Positions 20,450 through 50,904 of a stretch of 64,000 nucleotides of DNA are shown piece after piece. Position 1 is the stretch's first letter; each line of letters starts with the position of its first letter. Source of the DNA: Candidatus Latescibacterota bacterium (GTDB lineage Bacteria > Latescibacterota > UBA2968 > UBA8231); contig OZ241867.1 in the NCBI GenBank assembly GCA_965203175.1, positions 5,600,001 through 5,664,000 on the forward strand, given 5' to 3'. The position numbers and the translations under genes are program-made. A model generated the notes under the pieces. That model was not told where the DNA came from and made no database searches. It saw only the letters and a program-made list of their open reading frames with translations.

Positions 20450-20473
20450 TTGACACCTCAATTGGCTCTCTAG

Positions 20474-22670: not shown

Positions 22671-22698
22671 TAATTCGTAATTCCTAATTCCTAATTTG
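22671..22698 (+). repeat. Heptamer tandem repeat (TAATTCS) x4
   Basis: TAATTCG TAATTCC TAATTCC TAATTTG in a divergent intergenic region. Confidence 0.8.
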
Positions 22699-22716
22699 CG
22701 CAGAAGGAGTCCTTCC

Positions 22717-31909: not shown

Positions 31910-32007
31910 GAGAGTTTCCTATCAATCACTTCAAAAGCTGCTCAGATTTCCTTCTCCTCTTCGATTTTGTGCGGCTCGTTGGACTCGAATAGGACGCGCA
32001 GGGCCGT

Positions 32008-32036
32008 AATATACCTTACCGCTAGCAACATGCCAA
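32008..32036 (-). promoter_or_regulatory. Putative sigma70 promoter of the CBM9-TPR unit
   Basis: TTGGCA, 17 bp, TATATT. Confidence 0.55.
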
Positions 32037-32104
32037 AGAAACATCTACTCCGTTCCGCTGCTGCTGGCGTAAAAAGCCCGTTCTCAAACCGCATGGAGAA
32101 ATAC

Positions 32105-32133: not shown

Positions 32134-32190
32134 TTGGACTAATCCGCAAAATTTGGTGTGTTGGCTTGATCTTTCTCGTTGAGAGGTACT

Positions 32191-35100
32191 ATGACACCTC
32201 TGCTCATCGTAGGGACTTTGCTGGGGCTAGTAGTAGGCTCGTACTTTGTACCGACCCCGGACGAAATACAAGCTTCTTTCAAGCAGGCGCAGAAATTCTA
32301 CGCCGCCGAGGACTACGAGCAAGCCATCGCAACCTACGAGCGCATCAATGCCATTGAAAGCCCGCTGCTCTACACGGCGGAGATTGAGGTCGCGGTCGGC
32401 GAGGTTACGGCCCCAATCAAAGAAATCGCCCTCTACCAAACGGGTAATAGCTACTTCAAGCGCGCCCAAGAATCCCAGCGCCGCGCCGCCTGGGAGCGCG
32501 ACCCCGAACGCCAGCGCCAACTCGCCGAACGGACCGCTACCGACTTCGTAGAAGCGGCCGCCTACTTCCGCAAGACCGAAGCCCAGACTACCTCCCCGCA
32601 GATGCGGGAACTGGCCCGCAACCGGCTGATCAACTGCCTCTATGAAAGCGGCGATTACCAGCGCACCATAGAAGAAGGCCGAGCTTTTCTGCAGAAATAT
32701 CCCGCCAGCCAATACCTCGACAACGCCCTCTACAATATCGGCTGGGCCCATTTTGAATTGGGCCAGTACGGGGAAAGCATCACCACCTTTGAAGAATTGG
32801 TACAGCACGCTCCCAAAGGGTACCGCGCAGACCGGGCGCTTTTCCAAATCGGCGAAGCCTACTTTCTGCAGCAGCACTACGATCAGGCCACTTCCTGGTA
32901 CCAAGAGGTAGTAACCCGCCAAGACATCGACCACCTCAGCGAGCGCGACCTACTGAAGATGCGGCGCGAAAAAATAGCCGGCCTAGTGGACGAGACCGCG
33001 CTAGAACTGGCGGCCAAAGCCCAGATCAAAGTAGGCGATTGTCGCGCCCAAAGTGGGGATTTTGCCGCTGCCGCTGCCGCCTATAGCAAGGTTATAACCG
33101 CCTTCGCCCAGGAACAAAAACTGGTGGCCGAAGCCTACATCCGCCTAGCCGATATGTACACCCAAGGCGGCGATGACCAAGCAGCAGTGCGCACCTACCG
33201 CGAGGCCATCGACGGTAGCCGCAACCGCATTTTTCAGGCCAGCATGCAATCCCTGCTGGCCGAACACTATTACGGCATTGGCAACTATCAGCACGCCATC
33301 GCCGAATACCAACTCTACCTAGATGCGTACGGGGATGTAGCCAAAGCCGCTGGTCTGGCACCGCCCTGGGCCCTTTATAAGATCGGACGAGCCCATTACG
33401 AGCGGGCCGAGGTTCAGCGCCAAGCTGCGAACGACGATGCCCGCTTGACCTACGCACAGGCGATCGCCGCTTACGAACGCATTGCCGCCGACTACCCCAG
33501 CAGCGAACTAGTCCTAGCGGCTACCCCGTTTAATATCGCCCTGTGCAACCAGATGATTGGTGCCTTGGGCAGTGCCGAGCACACGGCCCAGGCACTGGAG
33601 CTCTACCAAGAGATCGTCGCCGCCGACCAAGACCCAGACTACGTGCGCAGCGCTCTTTTCCAACTGGGCCGCATCCACTACCAGCAAGAAGACTTCAAGC
33701 AGGCCATCGCCGCTTACGAGTCCATTCTGCAAGAATACTCCGAGGCTCCGCAGCGCCACGGGGCCCGTTTTGAACTAGCTCTGTGCTACCGAGATCTGGG
33801 CCAGCCCGGCAAGGCAGTAGAGCTATTCCGACAGCTTGATCGCACTTCAAACTTGTTCCCCAAGGCCATGCTCGAAGCGAGCAACCTGCTGGCTGCGGCG
33901 GGCGATTTCTCGGGGGCGCTAGAGGCGCTAGCGGCGGGCTTAGAGGCCAGTACAGATAAAAACGAACAGGCCCGTCTCCACTACATGAAAGGGCGCACCC
34001 TGATCGAAACGGAGACATTTGCCGCCGCAGTGGAGGCATTGGGACGCACCATTGAACTAGCCGACGACGACGAGGTGCGCCTAGGTGCCCTCTACGGCCG
34101 CGGCGTAAGCCTGCTCAAATTAAAACGCTACCAAGAGGCAACAGCCGACCTGAAGATGCTGCTGCACAGCGACAACGAGGAGTTGGCAAGGGCGGCCCAG
34201 CGCATGCTTGGTCTGGCCCATCTCGAATTAGGTCATCAGGAAGAAGCCATCGAGGACTACCAAGCCCTAGTAGCGGCAGCAACCGATTCACTCGAACGCG
34301 CCGAACACCTAGTGGTGCTGGCCGAACTTCACTACAACCTAGAGGAATTCGATCAAGTCGAGGCCCTATGCCAGCGGATTCTCTCCTTGGACTTGCCCGC
34401 CGTGCGCGGAGAGCAACCCTATTCCCTCCAAGAGAAAGCCTACTTCCTAATGGGCGACGCCCACGGCTCACGGGGCGACACCCAAGCGCTAATCAACACC
34501 TACCAAAAGGCACTGTCCCACTACCCAGATTCCTATTATTCGGCCGATATGCGCTTTGCTGTAGGACAAACCCTATTCGAGCGGGAAGATCTCGCGGGAA
34601 CCGTGCGAGTGCTCGAAACTTATCTGCAGAAGACGCCTAATCATCGCAACCGCCCCTATGCCCTCTACTATCTGGGATACGCCTATTTTAACCAGACTCA
34701 GTTCGAGCAGGCCGCGGCTGCCTTTGCCGACCTAGCCAGCGCCTATCCCCAAAGCGAACTGGCACCCGATGCACTGTTCCGGGCCGGAGAAGCCCATTAC
34801 AACTTGGGCCAATTCGAGACGGCGCAAGGGCACTACCAGCAATTGCTCGAAATGCACCCGCGATCGGATCTGGCCGACGATGCCCTCTACAATCTGGCCT
34901 GGTCCCATCTCAATATGGAACGGACGTCCCAAGCCATCGCCGCCTTCCAAAGCGTGGTTTCCGACTACCCCGGCAGCGCTCTGGCGGCCAATGCCCAGTT
35001 CACCATCGGCGACTTTTACTACAACGAGAAGGAATACGACAACGCCCTGCAGGCCTACCAAGAAGTCATCCGCCGCTTTCCCAGCAGTCCGGTGGCGCAA

Positions 35101-35436
35101 AAGGTTCCCGAATTAATAGATGACTTGCGCGAAGTAGTGGCCTACCTGCGCTACGCCGAAGTCGAGGAGATCTTTGCCCAAGCCCTTGAAGAGCAAGACC
35201 CGGCCCAATTCCGCCGGGCGGCAGCCGGCTTTGCGGAAATCGCGCGCGACTATCCCGGCACCGAAAGCGAGATCGGAGCACTGAGCAACATGGGGGTCTG
35301 CTACGAGTCATTGGGGCAGTGGAAGGACGCAGTGCAGGTTTACGATCAGGTTCTTGAGCGCCTAGCCGACGAACAGGCCGAAGCCCATCGCTTTGCCCGC
35401 ATGCACAAAGAGTGGATCGAAGCCAACCGCTTATAG
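32191..35436 (+). CDS. Giant TPR protein (CpoB/BamD-like repeats), N-terminally anchored
   Basis: Hydrophobic N-terminus and many repeats of type YP.S..A..AL...G..Y. ATG 32191 with SD GAGAGG. Confidence 0.92.
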   Translation: MTPLLIVGTLLGLVVGSYFVPTPDEIQASFKQAQKFYAAEDYEQAIATYERINAIESPLLYTAEIEVAVGEVTAPIKEIALYQTGNSYFKRAQESQRRAAWERDPERQRQLAERTATDFVEAAAYFRKTEAQTTSPQMRELARNRLINCLYESGDYQRTIEEGRAFLQKYPASQYLDNALYNIGWAHFELGQYGESITTFEELVQHAPKGYRADRALFQIGEAYFLQQHYDQATSWYQEVVTRQDIDHLSERDLLKMRREKIAGLVDETALELAAKAQIKVGDCRAQSGDFAAAAAAYSKVITAFAQEQKLVAEAYIRLADMYTQGGDDQAAVRTYREAIDGSRNRIFQASMQSLLAEHYYGIGNYQHAIAEYQLYLDAYGDVAKAAGLAPPWALYKIGRAHYERAEVQRQAANDDARLTYAQAIAAYERIAADYPSSELVLAATPFNIALCNQMIGALGSAEHTAQALELYQEIVAADQDPDYVRSALFQLGRIHYQQEDFKQAIAAYESILQEYSEAPQRHGARFELALCYRDLGQPGKAVELFRQLDRTSNLFPKAMLEASNLLAAAGDFSGALEALAAGLEASTDKNEQARLHYMKGRTLIETETFAAAVEALGRTIELADDDEVRLGALYGRGVSLLKLKRYQEATADLKMLLHSDNEELARAAQRMLGLAHLELGHQEEAIEDYQALVAAATDSLERAEHLVVLAELHYNLEEFDQVEALCQRILSLDLPAVRGEQPYSLQEKAYFLMGDAHGSRGDTQALINTYQKALSHYPDSYYSADMRFAVGQTLFEREDLAGTVRVLETYLQKTPNHRNRPYALYYLGYAYFNQTQFEQAAAAFADLASAYPQSELAPDALFRAGEAHYNLGQFETAQGHYQQLLEMHPRSDLADDALYNLAWSHLNMERTSQAIAAFQSVVSDYPGSALAANAQFTIGDFYYNEKEYDNALQAYQEVIRRFPSSPVAQKVPELIDDLREVVAYLRYAEVEEIFAQALEEQDPAQFRRAAAGFAEIARDYPGTESEIGALSNMGVCYESLGQWKDAVQVYDQVLERLADEQAEAHRFARMHKEWIEANRL

Positions 35437-35443
35437 GAATACC

Positions 35444-36667
35444 ATGGCCACTCAAATCGATGCCAAACGCTTCGCCACACCGACGGACGCACTCCGTTTG
35501 GAGGAATTACTGCGCCGACAGCGCGGAGTGCTCTACCGGGCGCTAGCAGTGGCTATTGTTTTGTTGGCCATACCCGCAATTTACCTAGCGACTAGGGAAG
35601 AAGAAAAAAAAGCGCCCAAACCTCCACTGATGCACCTCGTGGTGCGCAAACCGCGCCTAACCAAAGCCTTTGAGTTTGAGAAACAGCAAATCCCCAAGCG
35701 GCAAATGACCCGCCAAGTGCGGGCGGCCAAGCCGCAAATCACCCGCAAACCCCAGATTCGCCTCCCCGACCTAGTCGGCAAGATCAAGACTTTCCGTTTC
35801 GGCGTTGCCAGCGGTGCTGATCTAGGTTTGGAAGTGGTCCAGCCCGAAGTACAGCGCGTAGCCATCAAAAGCCCCAAAGAGCCGGAGAAGCGCATCAGTA
35901 TGCAGGAAGAATTCCTCGACTTGGAAGCGCTGGATATCGGCCGCTATAAGGGATTGGTGGTCCAGGATCCGGCCGACAAACAGAACATCACAGGCTTCGT
36001 TTACCTAGCCCTAGCCTGGGGCAACGACTTCAAACCATCAACCCAGCGGGCCATCTTCGAGCTGGTTGAAGCAATTAATGGATTTACCCAGATTCGGGCC
36101 GAAGTGGACGACCATCTCTTCCTCGATTCGCGCGCCATCTTCCGGGCACCCTTTGTGTACATTTCCGTCGATCAAGCCTTTGAACCCACCCAGCAGGAGA
36201 TCGCCAATCTAGGCGACTATTTGCGGCAGGGCGGCTTTGTCATGGTCGAAGCCATGGGCGAGTTGGGGCGGGATGCCGCCACTGAGTACACCCCGGCCGA
36301 AGCCTCGCTGCGGGAAATGCTCAAGGCTTCTCTAGGGCGGGATGCGCGCTTCAAGGTCATCCCCAACGATCACCCCATATACTACAGCTTTTACGATTTC
36401 GACGATGGTCCGCCGCCAAAGCGGACTCATGAAAGGCTTGTGCACAGCCGCGACTTTCATCCCGAAGTGCCCTTCTTAGAAGGCATTTTTCTGGGCGAGC
36501 GGCTGGTGGCGATCTTCACGACCAAGGAATATGGACGCGCCTGGGAAAAGGAATTCCGCAACGAGCCACAGCTACAAATGGGCGTCAACCTAGTGGTGTT
36601 CGCCCTGACTCAGCAAGGCTCCATTGCCCAGCAACAGATCGATTTCTACACGGAGCAGAACCGATGA
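35444..36667 (+). CDS. DUF4159-domain protein with TM anchor and Lys/Pro-rich linker
   Basis: TM helix, KKAPKPP..RKPRLTK linker, APFVYI, YLRQGGF, IPNDHPIYYSFYDF, GVNLVVFALTQ. Confidence 0.85.
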   Translation: MATQIDAKRFATPTDALRLEELLRRQRGVLYRALAVAIVLLAIPAIYLATREEEKKAPKPPLMHLVVRKPRLTKAFEFEKQQIPKRQMTRQVRAAKPQITRKPQIRLPDLVGKIKTFRFGVASGADLGLEVVQPEVQRVAIKSPKEPEKRISMQEEFLDLEALDIGRYKGLVVQDPADKQNITGFVYLALAWGNDFKPSTQRAIFELVEAINGFTQIRAEVDDHLFLDSRAIFRAPFVYISVDQAFEPTQQEIANLGDYLRQGGFVMVEAMGELGRDAATEYTPAEASLREMLKASLGRDARFKVIPNDHPIYYSFYDFDDGPPPKRTHERLVHSRDFHPEVPFLEGIFLGERLVAIFTTKEYGRAWEKEFRNEPQLQMGVNLVVFALTQQGSIAQQQIDFYTEQNR

Positions 36668-37905
36668 GTAAAGAGGATAATAGCGCGATGGGACGCGGCC
36701 GATTGATCTGGATTATTGCTCTGTGCGGCCTACTATCAGGCTGTTTTCTCTTTCCCACGGCCGTCAAGCGCGAGACCCTGCTGTTGCCGGTCATCGAGTC
36801 CGCGGAAACGGAAGAGATCTATAGTCTGCAAGAGAATGGCGCGACCTCTTGGGAACTAGCCGGTCTGCGCCTCGAGGTAGAGCACATGACCGACGCCAAG
36901 CTCAATGCCCTCTTTCCCGACGAATCCGGGCGCGGCAAGTACTCGACCAATCCCTATACCTACGGCAACTGGACCGATACACGCCTAGGTTATACGCCCA
37001 ACCGCTTCACCGTTTTCAAAGTCACTATTTTCAACCGCACTCAGCCCAAAGTCATGCTCGACCCATTGGCAGCCGTATTAGAGACCGACCAAGGTCAGTT
37101 CCTGCGCGCCTACGGCATCACTTCGTCGTCGCCCTATGGCAATTTCGAAAACTACTACCGCTCGCAGCGGGGCCAGAGCGGCAACGAATTCTATCGCTTC
37201 GAACTGCGCATGGGCATGGTGCGCAGTTATAACTACGAGGAGGACCAGCCCATATTTAAGGGCGAAAATTACGGCGGTTTTATCGTCTTCGATCCGGTTT
37301 ATCCCGAAACCGAGGAAGTAGTGCTGATTCTGAAGGACTTCGTCTTGCGTTTCGGGGCTTTTGACAAACCCGTGGAAAAGCGGGATCTGCGCTTTGTCTT
37401 TAAACACAAAGTGGAAAACCTCGTCGTGCAAAAGGGATCAACCAGCGGCAAAACCGCTGAAACCCTGATGATTTCCGAGAATGGCCCCAGCCAGATCATG
37501 GGCAACCTGCCCGGCGAGCGCACCCGCAGCCTGAGTGCCATTCGGGCCGTGGTGCGGCAGCGCTTGTCGGGTCTCAACCGCTGCTTCGTCGAAGCATTCG
37601 ACAAAGGCGAAGCCACCGAAGGTGCCGTGACCATGCGCTTCACCATTGAGGTGGGCGGAGCCGTTTCCGAAGCCAAGGCCACCAACTCGAGCGTGGGCAG
37701 CCAAGCCGTGGACCAGTGCATGCAGCAAGAAATTATGCGGTGGGCTTTCCGACCCATTGATATAGGGGCACTACAAACGCCAGCGACTAGTGCCACGAGT
37801 GGAGAGAATGGACCGGCGAGTGGTCCTGGAGCGCGGGCCACAGCACCTCGGTTGACGCCACTGCCTGTATTGGTGACGTATCCCTTCACTTTCAAGGTGG
37901 AATAG
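36664..37905 (+). CDS. Lipoprotein with C-terminal TonB-C/AgmX-PglI-like domain
   Basis: Lipobox LSGC. C-terminus IRAVVRQRLSGLNRCF...GAVTMRFTI..GAV...VDQCM...RWAF...VTYPFTF. Confidence 0.8.
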   Translation: MSKEDNSAMGRGRLIWIIALCGLLSGCFLFPTAVKRETLLLPVIESAETEEIYSLQENGATSWELAGLRLEVEHMTDAKLNALFPDESGRGKYSTNPYTYGNWTDTRLGYTPNRFTVFKVTIFNRTQPKVMLDPLAAVLETDQGQFLRAYGITSSSPYGNFENYYRSQRGQSGNEFYRFELRMGMVRSYNYEEDQPIFKGENYGGFIVFDPVYPETEEVVLILKDFVLRFGAFDKPVEKRDLRFVFKHKVENLVVQKGSTSGKTAETLMISENGPSQIMGNLPGERTRSLSAIRAVVRQRLSGLNRCFVEAFDKGEATEGAVTMRFTIEVGGAVSEAKATNSSVGSQAVDQCMQQEIMRWAFRPIDIGALQTPATSATSGENGPASGPGARATAPRLTPLPVLVTYPFTFKVE

Positions 37906-38372
37906 TGCGATTCAGCATACTCTTTGCAATTTTCTTTTTTCTCGCCGCTTGCGGCCGGGAAGAAGTGCCGCTGCTTGCGGTGCATCAGATATTGAACAAA
38001 ACCGGAGTAGCCCTAAAGGAGCGCCTGGGCGAACCGGATTTCGACTTTGCGCGCTCCGCGGAAGTAACCACTCTACAGTGGAGAGATGCGGATGGAGATA
38101 GCACCTGGGTTTACGTGGATTTGCTACACGACAACGCGTCTTATGTGACCTATACGTTCAAAAAAATGGACCCCTTTGATACGGCGGAAGCCCTGCGGCG
38201 CATTGGCCTGTCCGTGCCGGAACAAGAGCCGGAACAAGTATGGGAAAACGGCTCAAAGCGCTGGAAGCCCTTCGGCCAATACCACCGTCTGGTGGTCAAT
38301 CCAGTTACCAAACTCGTCACTGTAAGCCTCGACATCGAGTCGGAAGCACAACGAGAAATAGCTGAAAAATGA
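37905..38372 (+). CDS. Small lipoprotein, unknown function
   Basis: Lipobox LAAC. Overlaps both neighbouring genes. Confidence 0.8.
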   Translation: MRFSILFAIFFFLAACGREEVPLLAVHQILNKTGVALKERLGEPDFDFARSAEVTTLQWRDADGDSTWVYVDLLHDNASYVTYTFKKMDPFDTAEALRRIGLSVPEQEPEQVWENGSKRWKPFGQYHRLVVNPVTKLVTVSLDIESEAQREIAEK

Positions 38373-40420
38373 AAGTCAGGCCATCGGTAGTGGGTTTTGT
38401 CCTAGCGATGCTCTCGCCTGCGGCTGCGGCCGAGTGGCAGATAGCGCAGTGGGACCAGACCGTCCACTACCGGCTTACCTTCAATGCGGCTGAAGCCACA
38501 CAGGCCGCGCTGCGTCTGACCGCGGTCAATGAATACGAAGTTTTCCTCAACGGAGACTCAGTGGGCAGCGATGGCGACTGGACAACCGTCGAGGAACTGG
38601 CGGTCGACCTGCAAAGCGGTGACAACCATCTAGCCGTGCGCGCGGAAAACTGGGGACAGGGCAACGGCAGTGGTCTGATCGTCGAAGTGGTCGCCGGCGA
38701 CCAAGTGTGGCTGAGTACTACCAGCGGCCTGCAGGAGGTCTGGCGCTGGAGCGGCGATCCCCAGCAAGGCACCGACTGGCTGACGGCAGATATGAGCGAG
38801 GTAGCAGGGTGGACAACGGTACAGCGCGGTTGGCTGGAGCGCCCCAGGCTTTCCGGTTGGGACGACACCCTCGGAGCGGAAGTAATTGCCGGCTACCCGG
38901 GAGGCGTTGACGTGGGCGGCGACGGGCTGAGTTTGCGCACAGTCGAGGGCGAAAACCTCGCACTTAGTCAGTCGGCCAATCGACCGGAAGTATTCGACGG
39001 CCAAGCTGAAAGCGTCTGGACGATCGAACCCGACGAACTCAATAGCTTTGCCCGCGTCGATCTCGGTATCCAGCGCCTGCTCGGCGAAGTGCGGGTCTTT
39101 ACGGCCGGAGAGAATGCCGAAGATTTTGCCGCCAACACGCTGCAGGGATATGCCGTCGAGGTCAGCAACGACGGTTTTCAATGGCGCGAAGTCGGTGCCA
39201 TCCGCGGCATTGCCGATTTTGCGCAAACCGCCGTCGCCTTTGAGCCGATCTTCGGCCGCTTTTTGCGCGTGGTCGCCACCGAACTCGATCCACTGCGGCG
39301 GGCCCGCATCGCCGATATTCAGGTGACCGGTCAGGGAGTAGCCCCTGCGGGTACGTTCACTTCGGCACCACTAGCTCTAGGTTTGCCCGACCAGCGCAAG
39401 ATCTACGACCGCTTCCGCTGGACCGGACAGCGGCCCGCAGGCACCGCCCTGAGCATGCAGTTTCGCACTTCGAACGACGGCGTCTCCTGGAGCGACTGGA
39501 GCCCTGAAACCAATGCTTCAGAAGCCGATCTGCAGGTACCCGAACCGAGGGACTTGCTACAGTATCGAGTCAATTTCTCCACCGATTTCGAAGACGTCGG
39601 TCCGCGCTTGGATAGTCTAATCATTGCTTTCGCCGAGCAAACGCCCACCTCGGCCGCTCGCGTCCGGGTGGAACCGAACAAGGGAGTAGTAGGACGCGAG
39701 ACCGAATTCGTCTACCACCTCGCAGTCGAATTCGACGAAGGCGATTTAGGCGTGGAGCGCATCCGCATCGACATGCCGAGCCTAGCCGAGGTAACAGAAA
39801 TTGTGCCTCCCCCAGGGATGGAAGTCGCCCGCACCACCGTTTCGGGAGACGCCCTGGAGTTGGTATGGGCCGATCTCTGGCGTCAGTCCGGCCAGTTGCA
39901 ACTGCGTTTCAGGGCGCGGTTGCTGACCAACCAGTTCGCCTTTTCCACGCGCCTTTTCAGCCCAGAGGCAGCTATCTCACTCGATGCCGAGGAGGATGAC
40001 GCCTCTGATCCCGAAACCGGTGCCCCTTACTCCTGGAGTGTGCGAGCATTCGACGCGATTGGGCCGATATTGGACCAAGTGCGGACAAACCCGCCCGTTT
40101 TCACCCCCAACGGCGACAACATCAACGACCATACCATAGTTGAATTCGTTCTCTCTCGGATCAGTGTGCCCCAGGAAATAGACGTGGACATTTTCGACCT
40201 AGGAGGCCGCTTGGTGCGCCAGCTAGACACCGGCGCGCTGCGCGGCGGCCAATACGTGCGCCCTCCAGCCGGAAGCGACCCTGTGCGCAGCCCGGGTTTT
40301 TGGGACGGCCGCGACGACGATGGCACTTTGGTGGTGCCGGGTTTGTACCTAGTGCGAGTGCGGGCCCAATTGGACCAGGGCGACAAAACCGCCCTGTGCT
40401 CCGTAGCGGTGGTGTACTGA
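38369..40420 (+). CDS. Exported multi-beta-sandwich protein (discoidin-like) with type-B-CTD/FlgD-Ig-like tail, paralog 1
   Basis: Signal peptide, GENLA...discoidin-like segment, PVFTPNGDNIND...IFDLGGRLVR...WDGRDDDG..V.PGLY. Confidence 0.85.
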   Translation: MKVRPSVVGFVLAMLSPAAAAEWQIAQWDQTVHYRLTFNAAEATQAALRLTAVNEYEVFLNGDSVGSDGDWTTVEELAVDLQSGDNHLAVRAENWGQGNGSGLIVEVVAGDQVWLSTTSGLQEVWRWSGDPQQGTDWLTADMSEVAGWTTVQRGWLERPRLSGWDDTLGAEVIAGYPGGVDVGGDGLSLRTVEGENLALSQSANRPEVFDGQAESVWTIEPDELNSFARVDLGIQRLLGEVRVFTAGENAEDFAANTLQGYAVEVSNDGFQWREVGAIRGIADFAQTAVAFEPIFGRFLRVVATELDPLRRARIADIQVTGQGVAPAGTFTSAPLALGLPDQRKIYDRFRWTGQRPAGTALSMQFRTSNDGVSWSDWSPETNASEADLQVPEPRDLLQYRVNFSTDFEDVGPRLDSLIIAFAEQTPTSAARVRVEPNKGVVGRETEFVYHLAVEFDEGDLGVERIRIDMPSLAEVTEIVPPPGMEVARTTVSGDALELVWADLWRQSGQLQLRFRARLLTNQFAFSTRLFSPEAAISLDAEEDDASDPETGAPYSWSVRAFDAIGPILDQVRTNPPVFTPNGDNINDHTIVEFVLSRISVPQEIDVDIFDLGGRLVRQLDTGALRGGQYVRPPAGSDPVRSPGFWDGRDDDGTLVVPGLYLVRVRAQLDQGDKTALCSVAVVY

Positions 40421-40421
40421 G

Positions 40422-43139: not shown

Positions 43140-43143
43140 GTCC

Positions 43144-45870
43144 ATGTTAAAAGCGATCTCAACAGGCGCGCTTATAGCGGCCCTAGCAACGACGGTGTGT
43201 GGCGAAGGCGACCCCAGACTTATCGAGCCCCATACCACCGGTGCCCGCCTAATGCTCTACCGTCCCGGCCTGCTCACCTACGACAACTACGGCCTAGAGG
43301 GCTACCGGACCTGGCCTCGCAATGTCATCACGCGCACGGCCAACCCCGTGTACGACGAGTTCGGCGACTTTCTGGTAAACGGCGTCGAGGTGTACCATCT
43401 GCGGGAGAACCGCCGCTTCGACGATCCAGCCCAAGTGTTCAGCGGCAGCACCATTGCCAAGCCGAACAATTACGAGGGGTTTCTCAACCGCCTGATGGTA
43501 GCCGACGACAGCTATAATAACTGGCAGACGCGGCTGATCATCGGCGACCGCATCCGCACCCATTTCTCGCCGTTGATCCTAGATCTGGCAGCCTTCAATG
43601 GCATCCGCTGGGACCTGGCCAACGAAAGGCACAACTTCTCGGTCCTAGCCTCGCGCATGGACAAGCCCGTACTTTCCCGGGAGGACGCCACCGCCTTGAG
43701 CACCGCGGCCTTCGCTGCGTACCTGTTGGGCGGCCACTGGCAATGGAACTGGCGCACCATCGACCTGAGTACCTCTTATGTGAACCTCTTCCGCATTGAC
43801 ACTCGCTCGCCGCCTGACTGGAACGGCATGAAGGGTCAGTTGCCCAATCGGGTCCAGGTAATCGATTACTTGGTGGTCCGCATTGAAGACACCTCGCCCT
43901 TGGACGGCAACGGAGCCCGGATCTTCGATGTCAATATCCTGCTCAACGGCGAGCGACGAGACGACATTGAATCTTTTGTCACGCGCCACAACACAGAGGA
44001 TTTCAATCCGAACTTTCCCAACAAGGACTTCTTCTTCAAACGGCCAATTCCGCCCTACGTGGAAGTGTTAAAGGGCCACCGCTTGGGCACCTATCCACTG
44101 CAGACACCCGAACCCGATGGATCCTTCCGCGCCGATGGCAAGGACTATGTCCTGTTCTGGTTCCCGCTGCCCGAGGACGAGGAAGTGGTGTCGGCCTCCT
44201 TCGAGGCGCTGCTGAGCGGCAATTATCGCGTCAGTGTGTCGGAGATCTACGCCGTCGATCCGCGCGAATCCCGCAATGAACCGGCGCAGCGCAACCGCGC
44301 AACTTTTTACAAAAGTTTGGCCGGCTCCAAAGGACGTGGAGCCGCCGGCGCCGATGTCGAGCAGATCCGCTTTGACTACGGCCGCCAGACCGGTCTCACC
44401 TTGGCTGGCCTAGGTCTGAGCACGGACGTAAAGGGCTTCCGCTTCAAGGGCGAGTGGGCCCACAGCTTCAACTTCCTCCAATACCCTGTCCACCATCACC
44501 GCGGCCAACGCCACGATAGTAGAGGCCACGCCTATTTGCTCAATATCGAGCGGGAATTCACCCCGAAAATTGCCGTTGGCGGGGAACTGTTCCACCTCGG
44601 CCCCGAGTACCGCACCCAGCTTTCGGTGACCGACCTGACGCTAGGAGCGTACGCTGCCTCTGGCACCGGGCCTTTCGCCGGCGAGCTGGGGTCGACCGAC
44701 GAGAGCCTGAACAATACCCTCGACCTAAACACAGTTGACGACAACGACGACAAAGATCCTTTTCCAGACGATTTCTTCATACCCAGTTTCGAGGACCACA
44801 ACGGGATTTTCCCCGGTCTAGACAAGGACCAAGACGGCACCCCCGACACCAACCGCAATCGCAACCAAGTACCTGATTATTTCGAACCCTTTTTGCTCTA
44901 CGACGTCAACCCGGACGATTTCGACTACGGCGACGACCTGAATAACAATGGCGTCATTGACGTGCGCGAAAACGACAACAAGCCGGACTACCCGTATGAC
45001 CTCAACCGCAAGGGCTACCATCTCTTTGTGCGCTTTCAGCCCCAGCGGGCGCTGGAACTGACCCTCGGGCGCTACGATATGGAGGCCATCTGGGGTGGCC
45101 AGCGGGCGGATGTGTGGTACGCCAAAGCCGAGTACCAGCGGCGCTTCGGCAGTTGGGGCGAAGTGCGGGCAGTGGACTTCTTAAAGCGAGTGCGGGACGA
45201 TATCCCCGACGGCGTATTCCGCTTTGGCGACGTGGCCAATTTCGACATCTTTAATCCGCGTGCCACCATTGAGACCTTTGTCGAAGACGAATTGTTAATG
45301 CGGGACAGCGCCGTCAACACTGCCTTCGTCGACTTCGCTTTCCGGGGAGTGCGCAACCTCTTTGTCGGTGCCAATCTCAAGTTCGAAGCCAACCAACAGC
45401 TCAATGCCAAGAGCCGCGACAATGCGATTCAACTTTGGACTTCGGTGCTGCGAGCAGATTACCGCTGGCGTCTGGGCGGGCTAGAAGTATCGCCGCGCTA
45501 CAAGCTCATGCTGCGCCGCCGCACTGACGACGGGGGACGCATTCAGCCAGTGTCCGAGGTCTTCGGCTTCCCCATGCTAGTGGCCGACTTCAAATTCACC
45601 GAACGCACCTTCCTGCGCGGCGGTGTCCAAGGGCTATCCGCGCTGCCTAGCATCTACCGCAATGGCCAAAATGAGGACCAAGACTACAACACCCGCGATG
45701 CGCTTTTCATGCTGGTCAATCGCTTTGAATACGCTGGTTTCGATATGGCGCTTACAGCCGGCTACGAGATCAGCCGACGCCGCATGAAGGACCGCACCCG
45801 AAAATTCGAGGATATCAATTTCGAACAGTTTTTTATCCGCATGGTCGTGGGACTGGAGCCGGTACAATGA
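43144..45870 (+). CDS. Large exported protein, predicted outer-membrane barrel, paralog 2
   Basis: Same motif series: YDEFGD.L.NG, DSYNNW, NGIRWD, FPGLDKDQDGTPDTN, ENDNKPDYPY. Confidence 0.7.
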   Translation: MLKAISTGALIAALATTVCGEGDPRLIEPHTTGARLMLYRPGLLTYDNYGLEGYRTWPRNVITRTANPVYDEFGDFLVNGVEVYHLRENRRFDDPAQVFSGSTIAKPNNYEGFLNRLMVADDSYNNWQTRLIIGDRIRTHFSPLILDLAAFNGIRWDLANERHNFSVLASRMDKPVLSREDATALSTAAFAAYLLGGHWQWNWRTIDLSTSYVNLFRIDTRSPPDWNGMKGQLPNRVQVIDYLVVRIEDTSPLDGNGARIFDVNILLNGERRDDIESFVTRHNTEDFNPNFPNKDFFFKRPIPPYVEVLKGHRLGTYPLQTPEPDGSFRADGKDYVLFWFPLPEDEEVVSASFEALLSGNYRVSVSEIYAVDPRESRNEPAQRNRATFYKSLAGSKGRGAAGADVEQIRFDYGRQTGLTLAGLGLSTDVKGFRFKGEWAHSFNFLQYPVHHHRGQRHDSRGHAYLLNIEREFTPKIAVGGELFHLGPEYRTQLSVTDLTLGAYAASGTGPFAGELGSTDESLNNTLDLNTVDDNDDKDPFPDDFFIPSFEDHNGIFPGLDKDQDGTPDTNRNRNQVPDYFEPFLLYDVNPDDFDYGDDLNNNGVIDVRENDNKPDYPYDLNRKGYHLFVRFQPQRALELTLGRYDMEAIWGGQRADVWYAKAEYQRRFGSWGEVRAVDFLKRVRDDIPDGVFRFGDVANFDIFNPRATIETFVEDELLMRDSAVNTAFVDFAFRGVRNLFVGANLKFEANQQLNAKSRDNAIQLWTSVLRADYRWRLGGLEVSPRYKLMLRRRTDDGGRIQPVSEVFGFPMLVADFKFTERTFLRGGVQGLSALPSIYRNGQNEDQDYNTRDALFMLVNRFEYAGFDMALTAGYEISRRRMKDRTRKFEDINFEQFFIRMVVGLEPVQ

Positions 45871-47951
45871 TGTGGACGAGCACAGGCCAAACGGGTAAAT
45901 CGCCGCCTTGGCAGTTGCGCCCATTGCTATTGGCCGCGGCCTTGCTGGTGGGCACCACAGGTCATGCGGAAGAATGGACCGTTGATCAGTGGGAGCAGAC
46001 CGTGTACTACCGACATACCCTCAATGCACCCGAGGCGGGATCTGCCCTGCTGCGCCTGACTGCAGCAGACGAATACGAGGTTTTCCTCAACGGCGAAACC
46101 ATCGGCAGCGACGACAATTGGACCACCATGGAAGAATACCCGGTCGAGCTCAAGCGGCGCAAAAACGAACTGGCCGTGCGCGTCGTCAATCGCGGCCGGG
46201 GCAACAGCAGCGGCCTAGTTGTGGAGGTGAGCGCCGCAGAGCAGTCATGGGTCAGCACCTTTGGTGCGTTGCAGAATTTTTGGTACTGGAGCGGAGAACC
46301 CCAAGAAGACGCGGGCTGGCAGACAAAGGATGTGAGCCGACTGGACACTTGGCAGCAAGTGCAGCGCGGCCAGCTAGACAGGACGGGTGTATCCGGCTGG
46401 TCCGATACACTGAAGGCCGATGTAATCGCTGGCTTTCCCGGTGGCATCGACATAGGTCAGCCAGCCGGCGGCCTGAGCCTGCGTTCAGTGGAGGGAGAAA
46501 ACCTAGCGTTCAGGCTGCCCTCCAACCGCCCAGAAGTATTCGACGGCCGCTTCAATACCGGCTGGACCGTAGATCCGACCGAGTTGAACGCCATTGCCCA
46601 GGTGGATCTGTTGAACCGGCGTCTAATCAGCGAGGTGCGGGTCCTGACTCAGGGTAGAAACGCCGACGAGTTTGTCCAGAATACCCTGCGCGGCTACGCC
46701 ATCCAAGTAAGCAACGACCAGTTTGGCTGGAGCGAGGTGGGCGTGCTGCACAGCATTGATCAACCCGAACGCACAGCCATCGCCTTTGCCCCAGTCTTTG
46801 CCCGTTACCTACAAGTGATCATCGCCGAGGTCGATGCGGTGCAGCGCGCCAAAGTAGCCGAGATTCAGGTGCTGGGCAGTGGTATTGCCCCTGCGGGCAA
46901 CTTTGTCTCGCCGCCCCTAGACCTAGGACGGCCCGGAGAGCGCAAGAATTTCACCTCTGTGCGCTGGGGCGGCCAAGTGCCGGACGGTACCGCGCTCGGG
47001 TTGCAATTCCGCAGCTCAAACGACGGCAGCACTTGGAGCGATTGGAGCGCGCCTATACACACCAGTCCGGCTCTGCTACAGGTGCCCGAACCGCGCACTT
47101 TCCTGCAGTACCGGGTCAATATGGAGACTCAAGTCGAAGATGCGGGCCCGCGCTTGGACAGTCTGATTGTCGATTTCACCGACCAGATTCCCGCCTCGCT
47201 GGTCCGCGGCTGGGTCGAACCCAATCGGGCCGTGCTGGGTCGAGACACCCTTTTCACGTATCGCCTAGAGTTGGATTTCAGTGATGATGATCTAGGAGTA
47301 GAGCGGGTGCGTGTTGCCCTACCCAGTCAGATCGAGCTAGAAGAAATTGTGCCTCCACCTGGGATGGAAATCGCCACAACCACAGCATCGAGCACCGAGC
47401 TAGATATAGTACTGGCCGAGCCCTGGCGCCAAACGGGGACCCTAGAAATGCGCTTCCGCGGACGGCTACTGAGCAATGTCTTCCAGTTCCGCGCCCAAGT
47501 CTCTGGTCCAGACGGAGGCGCGACGCTGGATGCCGAAGAGAACATTGAACCCGACCCAGACAGCGGTCAGCCGCGCTCATGGGAGGTATCTGCCAGCGGT
47601 GTCGAAGGGACCCTATTGAGTCAAGTGCGCCCGGTACCACAAGCATTTAGCCCCAACGGCGACGGCATCAACGACGAAACAGCGATCGAATTTACCCTAG
47701 CGCGGATAAGCGAGCCCCAAGTAGTAGAAGTGGACATATTCGATGTCCAAGGCCGGCCTGTGCGCGCCCTATATGCAGCCACCCTGAGCGCGGGCGAATA
47801 CGTGTCCGCGTCGCCCTCGGTGCCGGGCCTATGGGACGGCAGGAACGATGCCGGTGAACTCGTGGCACCAGGACTCTACCTAGCGCGCGTGCGGCTCCTT
47901 CTCGAGCGCAAAGAAGAAAGCCGCCTGCGCGCTGTAGCCGTGGTGTACTGA
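45867..47951 (+). CDS. Exported discoidin/FlgD-Ig-tail protein, paralog 2
   Basis: Collinear homolog of 38369-40420. AFSPNGDGIND...WDGRNDAG..VAPGLY...VAVVY. Confidence 0.85.
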   Translation: MMWTSTGQTGKSPPWQLRPLLLAAALLVGTTGHAEEWTVDQWEQTVYYRHTLNAPEAGSALLRLTAADEYEVFLNGETIGSDDNWTTMEEYPVELKRRKNELAVRVVNRGRGNSSGLVVEVSAAEQSWVSTFGALQNFWYWSGEPQEDAGWQTKDVSRLDTWQQVQRGQLDRTGVSGWSDTLKADVIAGFPGGIDIGQPAGGLSLRSVEGENLAFRLPSNRPEVFDGRFNTGWTVDPTELNAIAQVDLLNRRLISEVRVLTQGRNADEFVQNTLRGYAIQVSNDQFGWSEVGVLHSIDQPERTAIAFAPVFARYLQVIIAEVDAVQRAKVAEIQVLGSGIAPAGNFVSPPLDLGRPGERKNFTSVRWGGQVPDGTALGLQFRSSNDGSTWSDWSAPIHTSPALLQVPEPRTFLQYRVNMETQVEDAGPRLDSLIVDFTDQIPASLVRGWVEPNRAVLGRDTLFTYRLELDFSDDDLGVERVRVALPSQIELEEIVPPPGMEIATTTASSTELDIVLAEPWRQTGTLEMRFRGRLLSNVFQFRAQVSGPDGGATLDAEENIEPDPDSGQPRSWEVSASGVEGTLLSQVRPVPQAFSPNGDGINDETAIEFTLARISEPQVVEVDIFDVQGRPVRALYAATLSAGEYVSASPSVPGLWDGRNDAGELVAPGLYLARVRLLLERKEESRLRAVAVVY

Positions 47952-47967
47952 TGGAAGTAGGCAGATC

Positions 47968-50904
47968 GTGAAAAAACCGACAATACACATCTGCTGTGTG
48001 CTCCTAGTCTTGCTGTGGGCAATAGTCCCGAGCTTGGCGGAAACGCCGCGTCTGGGCATTCCCGAGATTCTGCCTTCCCAAGACTTTCTCTGGCGGCAGT
48101 TGCCCCAGTACAATAACTACGCCTTTCAGGGCTATTCCAACTACCCGGACCACACCTTCCCCTACGCCGACCGACCTCGGGCCTTCTACGATTCCTTCGG
48201 CGATCCCCTCATTACTGGTTACGACTTGTACGACTGGACCGAGCGCCGCACGCTCGGTCAGGAATACGGCAGCAGCATCTTCAAGGATCGCAACCAGTGG
48301 AGCACGGTTTTCGATTTTCTAGTGGTGGGCCGCGACAGCTATAACGACTGGGGATACAGCGCCATTGTCGGCGATGGTCTGATCGCCCGCTTCACTCCGC
48401 TGACCCTGTCGCAAGTTGACTTTAATGGTGCCCGCTTCGACTTGGCCACTCCTTATGCCCGCTTCACCTTCCTAGGATCGCGCATCGAACGTCCTCATTT
48501 TTACATCGAATCCGTTTCCCCCTGGGCCATCGAAAATACGCACTTTGCCGACGATTCGACCATTCTGCTGGGGACGCGGCTGGAAACGGATATCGGGGCC
48601 CTGCGGCTGGGCCTAAACGGCGTGAACACGCACGTGTATCAAAGCACTCAAGACAACAACAGCCTCAAAGGATCCCTGAGACCCAAGCTGCCGTCCATGG
48701 ACCAGATTGTGGTGCGCTTTACCGATGACTCGCCCCACGACGGCCGCGGCGGTGCCTTGGTGCAGGAAGCGCAACTCATACTCAACGGCGAAGCCCGGCC
48801 CGATATCGTGCCAACAGTGATTCGCCACTTCGAAGGTGTAGATACGCAGGTGGGCACTATCTCCCGGCTGACGGGCCAATTCAACCCGACCATTTACACT
48901 AACCCTCGGGGCTATTACCAGATAGCCACGCTCTACTACCGAGGCAGAAACGATATGCCGCTCTTTGCCGATTACCTTTATCGCGCCGACCACGAGGCCG
49001 GCATTGATGTGAGTAAGAATACCAACCTCGAAGGGCTGCTGGCCACGTTCAAACTCGAATCGCCCGAGGAGATCCTCCAAGCCGACGGCAACGAGCACTT
49101 GGTGTTCGTCTTCGATCTGTCGCAGGAGCCCTACGTGGAATCGGTGGCTGTGGAAGCGGCGCTGGCCAATGACTACCGAGTAGAAGTGGCTACCCTCAAT
49201 CTCAACAATCCGCGGGGACGCGGCTATCCCAATCAGTACGTGAGCACATTCTACCGGACCGTCCTGCGCGCCGAGGGCAATGTGCAGGACGGCTCCAATC
49301 TGGCCAGAAGGCGGATCAATGTGGGCGAAAACACGTCGCTTTTCACCTACAGCGCCGATATGCACCTTGCCCTAGCCGGCCTAGAAGTCAACGGCGAATA
49401 CGCCCGTTCAGCGCGCTACTCCCGCTTTCCGGCGCGCATGGACGAGACCACACTGTACGACCGAGGACCGCGCTTCTCCGAGAAAGGATCGGCCTGGTAC
49501 ATCAATGCCGTGCGCTGGTTCAAGGGAGGCCGTCTAGGGGCCGAAGCCTTTGCCATGAATCCAGACTTCCACACGGGAATGCGCACCTTTGTGCCATTCG
49601 AAATCGGTTTGACAGAAACTACGCTGGCCGGCCTGGCCAACAACACCATCTTCTGGGATCTAGTGCAGGACAACGAGGACGGCGACCGCTATCCAGACAA
49701 GCGCGTGGGCAATCTACAGGGGCAACCCAACGACCGCGAAGACGAGGACATCGACGGAGTGTTCCCCGGCCAGGACGACGACAACGACGGCCTGCCCGAC
49801 ACCAACCGCAACTTCAACGATGTGCCCGACTACGTCGAGCCCTTCCTCATGTACTACGTCGAATCCAACGACTTCTTCTACGGCCTCGACCGCAACAACA
49901 ACGACGATCCCGATGTGCGCGAGGACGATCTAGACCCCGATTACCCTTACGACGCCGACCAGCGCGGCATCCATCTATTCGGTCAGCTAGATCTGACGTC
50001 TCAGTGGTCTTTGGGGGCGGGGCGCTACGACATCGAACAAATCGCTGGCGGCGGGCGCAACAAATCGACCTACGCGCTGGTGAACTACCGGCGCGAAGAG
50101 TTGGGACGGCTGCAGCGGCTGTTTTTCGAAAACCACCTGCGCCGCGTCAAAGACGATATCGCCGACGAATTCTCCGTGCTGGTCGAACGGCCGAAGCGCA
50201 TAGATACAGATTTTCGCGGCCTAGTCGCCGGCAACAAGCCCTCTTTCACCAACAATTTCCGCGCCGACCCGCTGCTGTATCGCAACAGCTATGTCAATGA
50301 CACCTATCTGGAGAGCTGGCTCAATCCCTGGTCCACCCTCCAGATGGTCCACAAAGTCCGCCTGCGCTTCAACTGGCAACAAGCTGGCCCCTTGCCCGGC
50401 GGCCTAGTCCAGCGCGACAAACGGCTCGATTTCTTCACTTGGGTCAGCCGTGCCGACTACACTTGGCATTGGCACCGGCTGCAGATCCAACCCCAGTTCA
50501 AGGTCCTGCTGCTGCGTCTAGTGGACCAAGCCGCCGACCGCCAACTCGACGGCCGCTACACCCACCGCACCGTGCGCTCGGAACTCAGTGTCATTCCCAT
50601 CCTGCGCTGTACCCTGCCGCTAATGCAGCGCAGCCAGCTACAACTGGGCATCCAAGGCTTGGGGCCGTTACCCTACCGGGTCGAGGACCGGGTCAATGCA
50701 CGCAATAGTTTTGACCAGCACACATTGTATCTCAACGTGAACAATCGCTCGAAGTACTTCGGCTACGATCTGCGCACGATCGTGGGATTACAGCGAGAGG
50801 TCAAGACATTCGACGAGGCATCGCGGGCGAGCGACGCTTTTGATGCGCTGACTTTTTTCGCCCGCGTCCTCATTGGCTTTACCGAATATGGACGGCTCCT
50901 ATAA
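47968..50904 (+). CDS. Large exported protein, predicted outer-membrane barrel, paralog 3
   Basis: Signal peptide, YDSFGD, DSYNDW, NGARFD, FPGQDDDNDGLPDTN, DPDYPY. Confidence 0.7.
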   Translation: MKKPTIHICCVLLVLLWAIVPSLAETPRLGIPEILPSQDFLWRQLPQYNNYAFQGYSNYPDHTFPYADRPRAFYDSFGDPLITGYDLYDWTERRTLGQEYGSSIFKDRNQWSTVFDFLVVGRDSYNDWGYSAIVGDGLIARFTPLTLSQVDFNGARFDLATPYARFTFLGSRIERPHFYIESVSPWAIENTHFADDSTILLGTRLETDIGALRLGLNGVNTHVYQSTQDNNSLKGSLRPKLPSMDQIVVRFTDDSPHDGRGGALVQEAQLILNGEARPDIVPTVIRHFEGVDTQVGTISRLTGQFNPTIYTNPRGYYQIATLYYRGRNDMPLFADYLYRADHEAGIDVSKNTNLEGLLATFKLESPEEILQADGNEHLVFVFDLSQEPYVESVAVEAALANDYRVEVATLNLNNPRGRGYPNQYVSTFYRTVLRAEGNVQDGSNLARRRINVGENTSLFTYSADMHLALAGLEVNGEYARSARYSRFPARMDETTLYDRGPRFSEKGSAWYINAVRWFKGGRLGAEAFAMNPDFHTGMRTFVPFEIGLTETTLAGLANNTIFWDLVQDNEDGDRYPDKRVGNLQGQPNDREDEDIDGVFPGQDDDNDGLPDTNRNFNDVPDYVEPFLMYYVESNDFFYGLDRNNNDDPDVREDDLDPDYPYDADQRGIHLFGQLDLTSQWSLGAGRYDIEQIAGGGRNKSTYALVNYRREELGRLQRLFFENHLRRVKDDIADEFSVLVERPKRIDTDFRGLVAGNKPSFTNNFRADPLLYRNSYVNDTYLESWLNPWSTLQMVHKVRLRFNWQQAGPLPGGLVQRDKRLDFFTWVSRADYTWHWHRLQIQPQFKVLLLRLVDQAADRQLDGRYTHRTVRSELSVIPILRCTLPLMQRSQLQLGIQGLGPLPYRVEDRVNARNSFDQHTLYLNVNNRSKYFGYDLRTIVGLQREVKTFDEASRASDAFDALTFFARVLIGFTEYGRLL

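Follow-up and report, generated by a model that had tools for sequence, protein, structure and literature searches.

A block of nine genes in the genome of an uncultured Candidatus Latescibacterota bacterium (assembly GCA_965203175.1) encodes a set of envelope proteins that recur together in several bacterial phyla. The block lies in a window of 64,000 nucleotides, positions 5,600,001-5,664,000 of a single 6.58-Mb contig (OZ241867.1), in an assembly of 93% completeness and 6.5% contamination. The initial annotation of this DNA had proposed a lineage-specific complex for export, adhesion, or uptake. The part of this proposal that stands is an undescribed, conserved trans-envelope set, and an undescribed complex for export, adhesion, or uptake is supported; the restriction to one lineage does not stand, since the set is found in several phyla of the Fibrobacterota-Chlorobiota-Bacteroidota (FCB) group. 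What might such a complex do? The reading preferred here, although tentatively, is that the operon represents a single master module within a modular system that spans the envelope and runs on the proton-motive force (PMF), and that this system captures and imports glycans in an energised manner, like SusC/SusD with TonB. A display apparatus linked to type IX secretion (T9SS) is a close rival.

The nine genes lie on the plus strand in the order g1, g2, g3, g4, A1, B1, B2, A2, B3, and successive gaps measure 7, -4, -1, -4, 1, 4, -4, and 16 nt. They are listed here with an upstream gene remnant and the two genes that follow.

31964..32044, minus strand: exbB remnant, the first 27 codons and then stop codons (tblastn, DNA alignment)
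32179..35436, plus strand: g1, tetratricopeptide repeat (TPR) protein of 1085 aa, or of 1081 aa if read from the ATG at 32191, with a signal anchor at the N-terminus; putative periplasmic scaffold (Pfam TPR)
35444..36667, plus strand (the open reading frame, ORF, opens at 35393): g2, bitopic protein with a transmembrane (TM) helix, a linker, and a DUF4159 head (Pfam DUF4159)
36664..37905, plus strand: g3, lipoprotein with an N-domain (residues ~13-250) and an AgmX/PglI C-terminal domain (291-366) (NF033768, lipobox LSGC)
37905..38372, plus strand: g4, 155-aa lipoprotein (lipobox LAAC)
38369..40420, plus strand: A1, Sec-exported five-domain all-beta protein (AlphaFold2, Pfam F5/8 type C)
40422..43139, plus strand: B1, 905-aa predicted giant outer-membrane beta-barrel (AlphaFold2, Foldseek)
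43144..45870, plus strand: B2, 908-aa paralogue of B1 (31% identity)
45867..47951, plus strand: A2, 694-aa paralogue of A1 (54% identity)
47968..50904, plus strand: B3, 978-aa paralogue of B1 (33% identity)
50943..52493, plus strand: g10, protein of 516 aa that lacks a signal sequence and belongs to no known family (library scans)
52668..54539, plus strand: g11, secreted protein whose tail resembles the T9SS type A kind (FlgD_ig, TIGR04183)

Much of what had been noticed at first sight is confirmed. The genes are co-oriented and tightly packed (gaps of -4 to +16 nt), all nine are intact, and an N-terminal hydrophobic export or anchor segment, be it signal peptide, lipobox, or TM anchor, is present in nine of nine products. 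No enzyme family was found in any of the nine proteins by Pfam and NCBIfam scans. The view that none of the genes is a canonical component of Agl-Glt or T9SS also holds in the tests that were run. B, the N-domain of g3, and g4 appear, by sequence comparison, to lie outside every family described in Pfam and NCBIfam and, for B and g3, outside those of the PDB.

Has this gene set come together by chance? Among 70 related loci that were fetched (numbered with the prefix L), B is present in 66, A in 62, g1 and g3 in 44 each, g2 in 31, ExbB in 27, ExbD in 26, and a PorP-like gene in 24. A, B, and g1 occur together in 38 of the 70, and 20 of these 38 also have both ExbB and ExbD; a gene set found in 38 loci is not a chance cluster. 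Six loci that are nearly identical to the window (L001-L005 and L008; 88-98% at the protein level) derive from metagenome-assembled genomes (MAGs) of Candidatus Latescibacterota, some of which are labelled Gemmatimonadetes. The set recurs in Latescibacterota, Zixibacteria, KSB1, Zhuqueibacterota, and Neomarinimicrobiota, usually accompanied by exbB/exbD and a PorP/SprF-like barrel. A conserved gene order, which the initial annotation had left to be checked, is found in four other phyla, where L024 (Zixibacteria), L025 (KSB1), L027 (Zhuqueibacterota), and L057 (Neomarinimicrobiota) share the order A, PorP-like, B, TPR, ExbB, ExbD, DUF4159 (one or two copies), and the g3 N-domain (g3N). In these loci, MotA_ExbB and ExbD match at ~1e-28 to 1e-31, and the barrel between A and B is ~320 aa long. 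This barrel is PorP/SprF-like: of six members that were aligned, three have a PF11751 match (8.2e-9 for the best). Among the related loci, a secure carrier from Bacteroidota was not seen. The B protein of L026, a locus labelled 'uncultured Cytophagia', is almost identical to that of the Zhuqueibacterota MAG in L027 (branch lengths of 0.06-0.07), and its Bacteroidota label is probably wrong.

The motor of the system is missing from the window copy. It had been noted at the outset that the window contains no MotA/ExbB-type gene, and this is correct: MotA_ExbB is matched by none of the 41 window ORFs scanned with Pfam, and none of the seven MotA_ExbB places in the genome falls inside the window. 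What remains is the 27-codon exbB stub upstream of g1, with 92.6% identity to residues 1-27 of the ExbB of L001 (tblastn). In the sister loci with enough upstream flank (L001, L002, L003, and L008), a full divergent exbB-exbD pair lies directly upstream of g1, and the synteny of the window with L001 and L003 breaks at ~31964. The adjacent exbBD of the sister strains and the stub thus show that the motor is part of the system, and that its absence from the window is a recent local loss by rearrangement and not a matter of design. The stub stands between g1 and a CBM9-like gene at window positions 31163-31909 on the minus strand.

For the rest of the exbBD cassette of the L001 type, no nucleotide match was found in the genome. 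The best remaining genomic ExbB is 53-56% identical. It belongs to a 1,612-bp exbB-exbD-exbD cassette that is present twice at 99.6% identity, once alone, ~94 kb upstream of g1 (G000:C1:5537807-5539418), and once beside the paralogous module at 6.15-6.17 Mb (6172138-6173749). The window module may either be served in trans by another exbBD cassette or be idle.

Which protein could transmit the energy of the motor? In the g2 protein, a short N-terminal segment in the cytoplasm leads into one TM helix, then into a basic, proline-rich linker (consensus KPLxVKFxxRxPRLxKPLEL) and a DUF4159 domain (Pfam, 6.7e-29), a layout that is TonB/TolA-like. Its nearest solved structure is PDB 4i66, an uncharacterised Haliangium protein (1.5e-4). 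In TonB and TolA, a histidine in the TM helix has a role; such a histidine is found in 15 of 33 g2 orthologues and in seven of the nine that have ExbB within 3 kb. Because g2 has the layout of TonB, occupies the slot after exbD, and carries the TM histidine in seven of nine ExbB-adjacent orthologues, it is a better candidate for a TonB-like transducer than g3. ExbB and ExbD are present in 20 of the 38 loci with A, B, and g1, with DUF4159 in the TonB slot; this gene linkage, which the window copy has lost, may reflect energisation of the TonB-dependent transporter (TBDT) type. A second DUF4159 protein is encoded in the window at 17808-19004 on the minus strand (Pfam 2e-7; 23% identity to g2 by tblastn), flanked by a DUF3604-like gene (15970-17787) and a sulfatase gene (19010-20461), and far from A and B.

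The g3 protein had been assigned a TonB-C/AgmX-like domain. The AgmX part of this assignment is upheld by a match to NF033768, the AgmX/PglI C-terminal domain (61.8 bits; cut-off 40), while TonB_C stays under its cut-off (20.6 vs 27.1 bits), and g3 is a lipoprotein with no TM anchor. Moreover, the g3 N-domain is 42-44% identical in modules of Zixibacteria, KSB1, and Zhuqueibacterota, in which the TonB_C-like part is missing. The comparison shows that g3N is the part shared across phyla, and that the AgmX/TonB_C-like domain is an add-on of the window's clade. Searches of g3 against PDB sequences gave nothing under E 0.19, and the ESM Atlas returned only unnamed clusters for the N-domain, with a DUF4352 lead that scored 0.75. 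Some g3N-like matches, at G000:C1:2795498-2796271 and in several relatives' loci, contain one in-frame stop (TGA, TAG, or TAA); such copies may be in decay, or the matches may run on into adjacent frames. The small lipoprotein g4 has no Pfam or NCBIfam match, and its 19 orthologous ORFs in related loci stand at the head of master modules.

Full-length orthologues of the TPR protein g1 number 43 and measure 1037-1283 aa, with a single one longer than 1104 aa; identity is 27-96% over at least 97% coverage, and other phyla are included. Thus, g1 is a true orthologous family and more than a generic TPR protein. It does not qualify as the T9SS core protein PorW/SprE, whose model scores 127.9 bits against a cut-off of 250.

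The AgmX/PglI domain, together with parts that match in kind, namely a TolQR/ExbBD-type motor, large periplasmic TPR proteins, barrels, a lipoprotein, and a surface adhesin, raises the question of whether the operon encodes a relative or analogue of the Agl-Glt/Nfs machinery, in which the motor would move the TPR protein and the barrels and so drive adhesins for gliding or surface transport. A Glt core complex does exist outside myxobacteria: Luciano et al. (2011) describe a core of aglRQS with gltC, D, E, and G that has an unknown function outside myxobacteria and includes one member from Fibrobacteres (PMC3169522). However, no orthology was found beyond the AgmX/PglI domain, which is missing from the modules of other phyla. 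The full-length GltG and GltJ models reach 32 of the required 650 bits and 18.7 of 450 bits, and GltG is a bitopic protein with a forkhead-associated domain and a TM helix, unlike the lipoprotein g3. No Glt TPR model matches g1 at E <= 0.01, and no gliding-family model is among the 21 NCBIfam matches of g1 at that threshold, in a library whose Glt content was unchecked and with no search made for the GltA/B/H/K platform. Finally, the 62 barrel and ~153 lectin genes of this genome have no counterpart in Agl-Glt and do not fit a single motility apparatus. A force transducer of this kind is therefore the least probable of the readings considered.

A structural role for the operon would also draw on g1. 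Its C-terminal TPRs score 271 bits with tol_pal_ybgF (TIGR02795) and 190 bits with BamD, and a TolB-like PD40 protein is found in one master module, L099. The TPR and ExbBD parts would then have an integrity role similar to that of Tol-Pal with CpoB/YbgF, with which they share the motor class, a bitopic transducer, and a YbgF/BamD-like TPR protein; B would act as SlpA/OmpM-like anchors and A as a surface layer. The three groups of B proteins, which always occur together, may fit a trimer. By contrast, the YbgF score comes from eight repeated stretches in a protein ~nine times the length of the model, g1 is ~four times as long as CpoB, and the operon has no TolA, TolB, or Pal, while its barrels and lectins lack a counterpart in Tol-Pal. 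Peptidoglycan-binding domains of the S-layer homology (SLH), OmpA_C, and Pal-like types were not found in any part by Pfam and NCBIfam, and ~40 diversified loci would be unusual for a structural layer. This role is unlikely, if slightly less so than the Glt-like one, and both fit fewer of the facts than import or T9SS-linked display.

What kind of protein is B? The initial annotation had called these proteins barrel-like, which agrees with the AlphaFold2 model of B1 and its Foldseek matches and, for B2 and B3, with their 31-33% identity to B1. The B1 model (pLDDT 78.7 and pTM 0.75, from an alignment of 34 rows) consists almost wholly of beta structure, for which DSSP gives ~32-34 strands. An alpha/beta domain is inserted at 212-357, and an acidic, DxDxD-rich segment resembling calcium loops lies at 505-622. 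The N-terminus (17-64) is modelled with low confidence, as if disordered, yet is conserved in sequence; together with the acidic region, it is the most conserved part of the protein, as expected for contacts with conserved partners. The top Foldseek match is SlpA (1.5e-10), followed by MtrB, LptD, TonB-dependent receptors, and SprA, with TM-scores of 0.13-0.25, and VIA-align returned generic porin-like matches (Z of 11-14 over ~230 aligned residues). The best structural matches of B1, Deinococcus SlpA, MtrB, and LptD, are alike in fold class and size range; they are unlike it in that identity is ~10%, and in that B has no SLH or coiled-coil part and no MtrA- or LptE-like partner gene. The SlpA match, which would speak for a structural role, has a TM-score of only 0.2, and the weak SlpA_C barrel match of B3 (Pfam, 5.3e-5) reaches 22.2 bits against a cut-off of 35.

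No described family accounts for these proteins. B1 and B2 have no Pfam match at E <= 0.01 and no NCBIfam match, and a B profile found nothing better than E 0.2 among PDB sequences. The same profile matched 1,174 cluster representatives among 1.84 billion, 402 of them at E <= 1e-30. The 93 B homologues retrieved with a word index have no Pfam domain and are named only 'hypothetical', and the ESM Atlas gave only unnamed clusters. DUF6029, which the ESM Atlas suggested with a score of 0.89, was rejected as the family of B, as it matches a separate 532-aa ORF in the genome. As far as the models go, B is a new family of predicted giant outer-membrane beta-barrels. In a FastTree phylogeny of 85 B proteins (Shimodaira-Hasegawa-like support), the 11 module-linked B proteins of this genome cluster with those of other phyla (support 100), and a clade of its own (support 100) is made up of the 51 B proteins from satellites. 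B1, B2, and B3 represent three orthologous groups that travel together (support 100 each); the B2 clade contains three copies from this genome and those of L006, L012, L014, and L035.

The A proteins resemble glycan binders and appear to be non-catalytic. In the AlphaFold2 model of A1 (pLDDT 87.1), five beta domains follow one another: D1 is lectin-like, D2 is a discoidin domain, the next two are beta-sandwiches, and the last is a tail (577-683) that resembles the C-terminal domain (CTD) of T9SS cargo. Profile matches point to lectins and rhamnosidase N-domains for D1, to CBM32/discoidin for D2, and to FlgD and C5a-peptidase Fn domains for the tail, and Foldseek with the A1 model found only generic multi-beta-sandwich and discoidin matches. 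F5/8 type C is matched by A1 (1e-8, above the Pfam cut-off) and A2 (7.5e-11). Among 44 A-like proteins scanned, F5/8 type C is present in 16 and a catalytic domain in none.

It is the tails of these proteins that bring T9SS into play. CHU_C and/or FlgD_ig tails are found in 39 of the 44 A-like proteins; CHU_C is matched at E <= 1e-3 in 35 and over the Pfam cut-off in 20. In the window, CHU_C gives 25.2 bits for A2 (1.8e-5) and 18.6 bits for A1, with a cut-off of 27. The genome also encodes SprA (490 bits, or 618 with in-frame neighbours; cut-off 200) and the sortase PorU (632 bits; cut-off 420). In Flavobacterium and Porphyromonas, type B cargo requires a cognate PorP/SprF-like protein, as in the pairs SprB/SprF and PG1035/PorP. 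A could then be type B-like cargo that is exported through SprA, and B its cognate secretion or anchoring partner, a giant functional analogue of PorP/SprF; the TPR protein, ExbBD, the DUF4159 protein, and the lipoprotein would supply energy or a scaffold, and the output would be a lectin coat instead of import. The presence of a PorP/SprF-like gene between A and B in KSB1, Zhuqueibacterota, Zixibacteria, and Neomarinimicrobiota is consistent with this idea. So is its absence from all 20 satellite loci examined, where B is hence the sole barrel beside A, as well as the pairing of the genes: an A protein encoded beside B has another B-adjacent A as its best match in 18 of 21 cases. The likeness extends to the barrel gene directly downstream of A and to a PMF motor pair in the operon.

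Several observations argue against T9SS-linked display. The curated CTD models are not passed: TIGR04131 (type B CTD) matches 11 of the 44 A-like proteins at E <= 1e-3 but exceeds its cut-off of 35 in none, and TIGR04183 (type A CTD) passes in none. B, which is ~three times as large as PorP/SprF, has no detectable homology to it (no PF11751 match, and an hhalign probability of 0.3% against a PorP-like profile); no PorP-like gene is present in the window, and B is present wherever a PorP-like gene is present, so it is not a simple replacement. The motor is ExbB/ExbD and not PorL/PorM, and no ExbBD/TonB-like energiser is known to serve T9SS anchoring. On the side of display, none of GldK, GldL, GldM, and GldN was found over its cut-off in the genome; these are weak negatives, as GldL, GldM (TIGR03517), and GldN had no match in any control genome, and GldM_1st and GldK had none over the cut-off in the controls.

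How are these genes distributed across the phylum? In a sample of 121 genomes, B is present in 71, g3N in 69, and SprA in 116 (115 over the cut-off), and GldL exceeds its cut-off in none. B and g3N follow the same pattern family by family, with 40 of 40 genomes positive in the window's family and 0 of 29, 0 of 13, 0 of 2, and 0 of 5 in four others. Thus, 49 genomes (families f2, f3, f4, and f8) have SprA and lack B and g3N. These genomes led to the rejection of a general replacement of the T9SS PorKLMN core, and they indicate that the set is not a general part of T9SS. The system is an addition to both T9SS and TBDTs and a general replacement of neither. Display of a lectin coat through T9SS is, taken together, possible but less probable than import.

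Two further observations concern T9SS-related genes. Directly after the PorU gene comes an ORF for a barrel of 378 aa (G000:C1:2958744-2963106), which is matched by the PorP-like profile at 1.6e-24 and may be the PorV or PorP partner of this genome. Proteins with the fold of the formylglycine-generating enzyme (FGE)-sulfatase family are encoded in or beside some modules (L063:16912-18276, plus strand; G000:C1:6504842-6505525), and none reaches the GldK cut-off. PorK and GldK share this fold; a maturase role is equally likely, the genome being rich in sulfatases.

The set is widely expanded in this genome. Full-length B paralogues number 62 in the genome (by hidden Markov model), and tblastn counts ~153 A-like genes, 18 g3N, 12 DUF4159, six g1, six ExbB, and eight ExbD. 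With 62 B and ~153 A genes set against six g1 and six ExbB, a few energiser sets would serve many barrels. The A and B genes form 44 clusters longer than 4 kb. Five loci combine the TPR protein with other core parts: the window and those at 6.15-6.17, 6.50-6.53, 2.79-2.81, and 3.054-3.062 Mb, the last with no A or B. The genome thus holds about five master modules and about 40 satellite A/B cassettes. A typical satellite encodes a g3N lipoprotein, two to four A, and one or two B proteins, and sometimes TPR proteins or a SurA-like peptidyl-prolyl isomerase; a ~300-aa protein of one family, with weak CBM9 matches, is found in 13 of 20 satellite loci.

In energised glycan capture and import, ExbB/ExbD would turn proton flow into movement of g2, and g1 with the g3 lipoprotein would span the periplasm and reach the conserved parts of B on that side, its N-terminal and acidic segments. 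B would hold A proteins at the cell surface, with the variable parts of B pairing with A. The lectin and discoidin domains of A would bind glycans, which would pass inward through the energised barrel. The whole would resemble SusC/SusD with TonB, assembled from unrelated parts. Import is favoured by the sulfatases and sugar ATP-binding cassette (ABC) transporter components of the window and by the enrichment of FG-GAP/ASPIC (UnbV) genes near B: the genome has 59 such genes, and 21 of 40 B loci have one within 10 kb, compared with 7.0 expected and a maximum of 16 in 2,000 shuffles. In the window, FG-GAP/ASPIC genes lie at 27201-29366 and 54918-56369, both on the plus strand.

Which known systems does the set most resemble in function? 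These are TonB/ExbBD with TBDTs or SusCD, and T9SS type B cargo with PorP/SprF. As in the TonB systems, ExbB/ExbD is encoded with a bitopic protein made of a TM helix, a basic, proline-rich linker, and a globular head; a few energiser sets face dozens of diversified barrels; and a non-catalytic, glycan-binding surface protein is encoded beside each barrel. The parts themselves differ. B has no Plug (PF07715) or TonB_dep_Rec domain and a predicted number of strands far above 22; the head of g2 is DUF4159 and not TonB_C (PF03544/TIGR01352), and that of g3 is below the TonB_C cut-off in a protein with no TM anchor; A is a multi-domain lectin with Sec and CTD features and not a SusD lipoprotein. 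Elsewhere in the FCB group, Raut et al. report a cellulose-induced ExbB/ExbD/ExbD/TonB cluster, and TPR proteins, in the cell envelope of Fibrobacter (PMC6851124). The available text of a 2015 survey of Latescibacteria goes no further than porins and the TonB-dependent uptake of B12 and iron (PMC4454575).

A number of points weigh against import. The direction of transport proposed here, inward and not outward, is tentative. The T9SS-like tail of A, and the PorP/SprF-like gene after A in other phyla, would each suit secretion or anchoring better. By Pfam, neither a Plug domain nor a recognisable TonB box is present in B, and the genome has canonical TonB-dependent receptors besides, with 32 Plug-domain ORFs, 31 of them over the Pfam cut-off. 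The strand count and single-barrel topology of B1 come from the DSSP string and from Foldseek matches of low TM-score, which would accommodate one barrel or two. Beside A and B in the 20 satellite loci examined, glycoside hydrolases, regulators, and inner-membrane transporters were all absent, unlike in true polysaccharide utilisation loci (PULs); the same finding would suit T9SS-linked display. The g2 proteins of the window's clade have no TM histidine, and with exbBD lost as well, the window copy may lack energisation. On the other side, the operon is possibly expressed: in close relatives, all of it is covered by RNA-library contigs from three studies, and one contig of 6,989 nt spans the end of g1 into B1, although such contigs may include carried-over DNA.

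Where does the unit end? The gene g11, beyond B3, matches FlgD_ig (1.1e-16) and TIGR04183 (26.2 bits; cut-off 23), and gave nothing useful against PDB sequences. In the loci L012-L018, L035, L040, and L049, the order is g4-g11-A-B-B-B-TPR. Since g11 is inside the module in these relatives, the unit probably extends to g11 (52668-54539). Membership of g10 is doubtful. This protein has no match in Pfam, NCBIfam, or the PDB and no N-terminal hydrophobic segment, and it lies inside the locus solely in near-identical relatives. There are 19 g10 paralogues in the genome, each of ~500 aa; one is at window positions 62189-63706 on the minus strand, and several are clustered just downstream of the window. 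Promoter and terminator scans showed no excess over shuffles in either of two stretches (4 vs 7.1 and 20 vs 21.9 in the first; 0 vs 2.6 and 6 vs 7.6 in the second).

Other genes of the window include sulfatases at 6568-8091, 19010-20461, and 22696-24348, sugar ABC transporter genes, and an insertion sequence-type integrase (rve, rve_3, HTH_21) at 2294-3157 on the minus strand. Large DUF6785/DUF6784 proteins are encoded on the plus strand at 13884-15782 and 57651-59591, the first directly 3' of genes for an ABC permease and a solute-binding protein; the same family is found beside the A/B loci L061, L070, and L081.

How new is the system? No description of it was found in literature searches on DUF4159, T9SS, Latescibacter, and related phyla. 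A motor, a transducer, a barrel, and a surface binder make up a logic of a known kind; what is new is the barrel family, the lipoprotein domain of g3, the putative DUF4159 transducer, and the extent of the expansion. It is conceivable, with less confidence than is placed in import itself, that ExbB/ExbD with a DUF4159-headed transducer forms a further class of motor-coupled envelope systems beside TonB, Tol, Agl-Glt, and the PorLM of T9SS. Such a class would drive barrels of more than 30 strands in at least five FCB phyla, with ~40 substrate-specific barrel-lectin cassettes per genome in Latescibacterota providing PUL-like glycan capture and import that arose independently of SusC/SusD.

If the system is energised by ExbBD through DUF4159, it would add a new class of clients and a new transducer to the envelope machines run by 5:2 motors. 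It would also give a function to DUF4159, alongside the new families represented by B, the g3 N-domain, and g4. The sister strains with an adjacent motor, and this genome without one, offer a natural comparison for the sharing of energisers in trans. Latescibacterota and their allies, which are abundant and uncultured, degrade polysaccharides of marine and sponge-associated origin, and the system may bear on how large substrates pass the outer membrane in these organisms. By rough arithmetic from gene lengths, the 62 B and ~153 A genes amount to ~7% of the 6.6-Mb genome, which suggests that they form a main interface between the cell and its surroundings.

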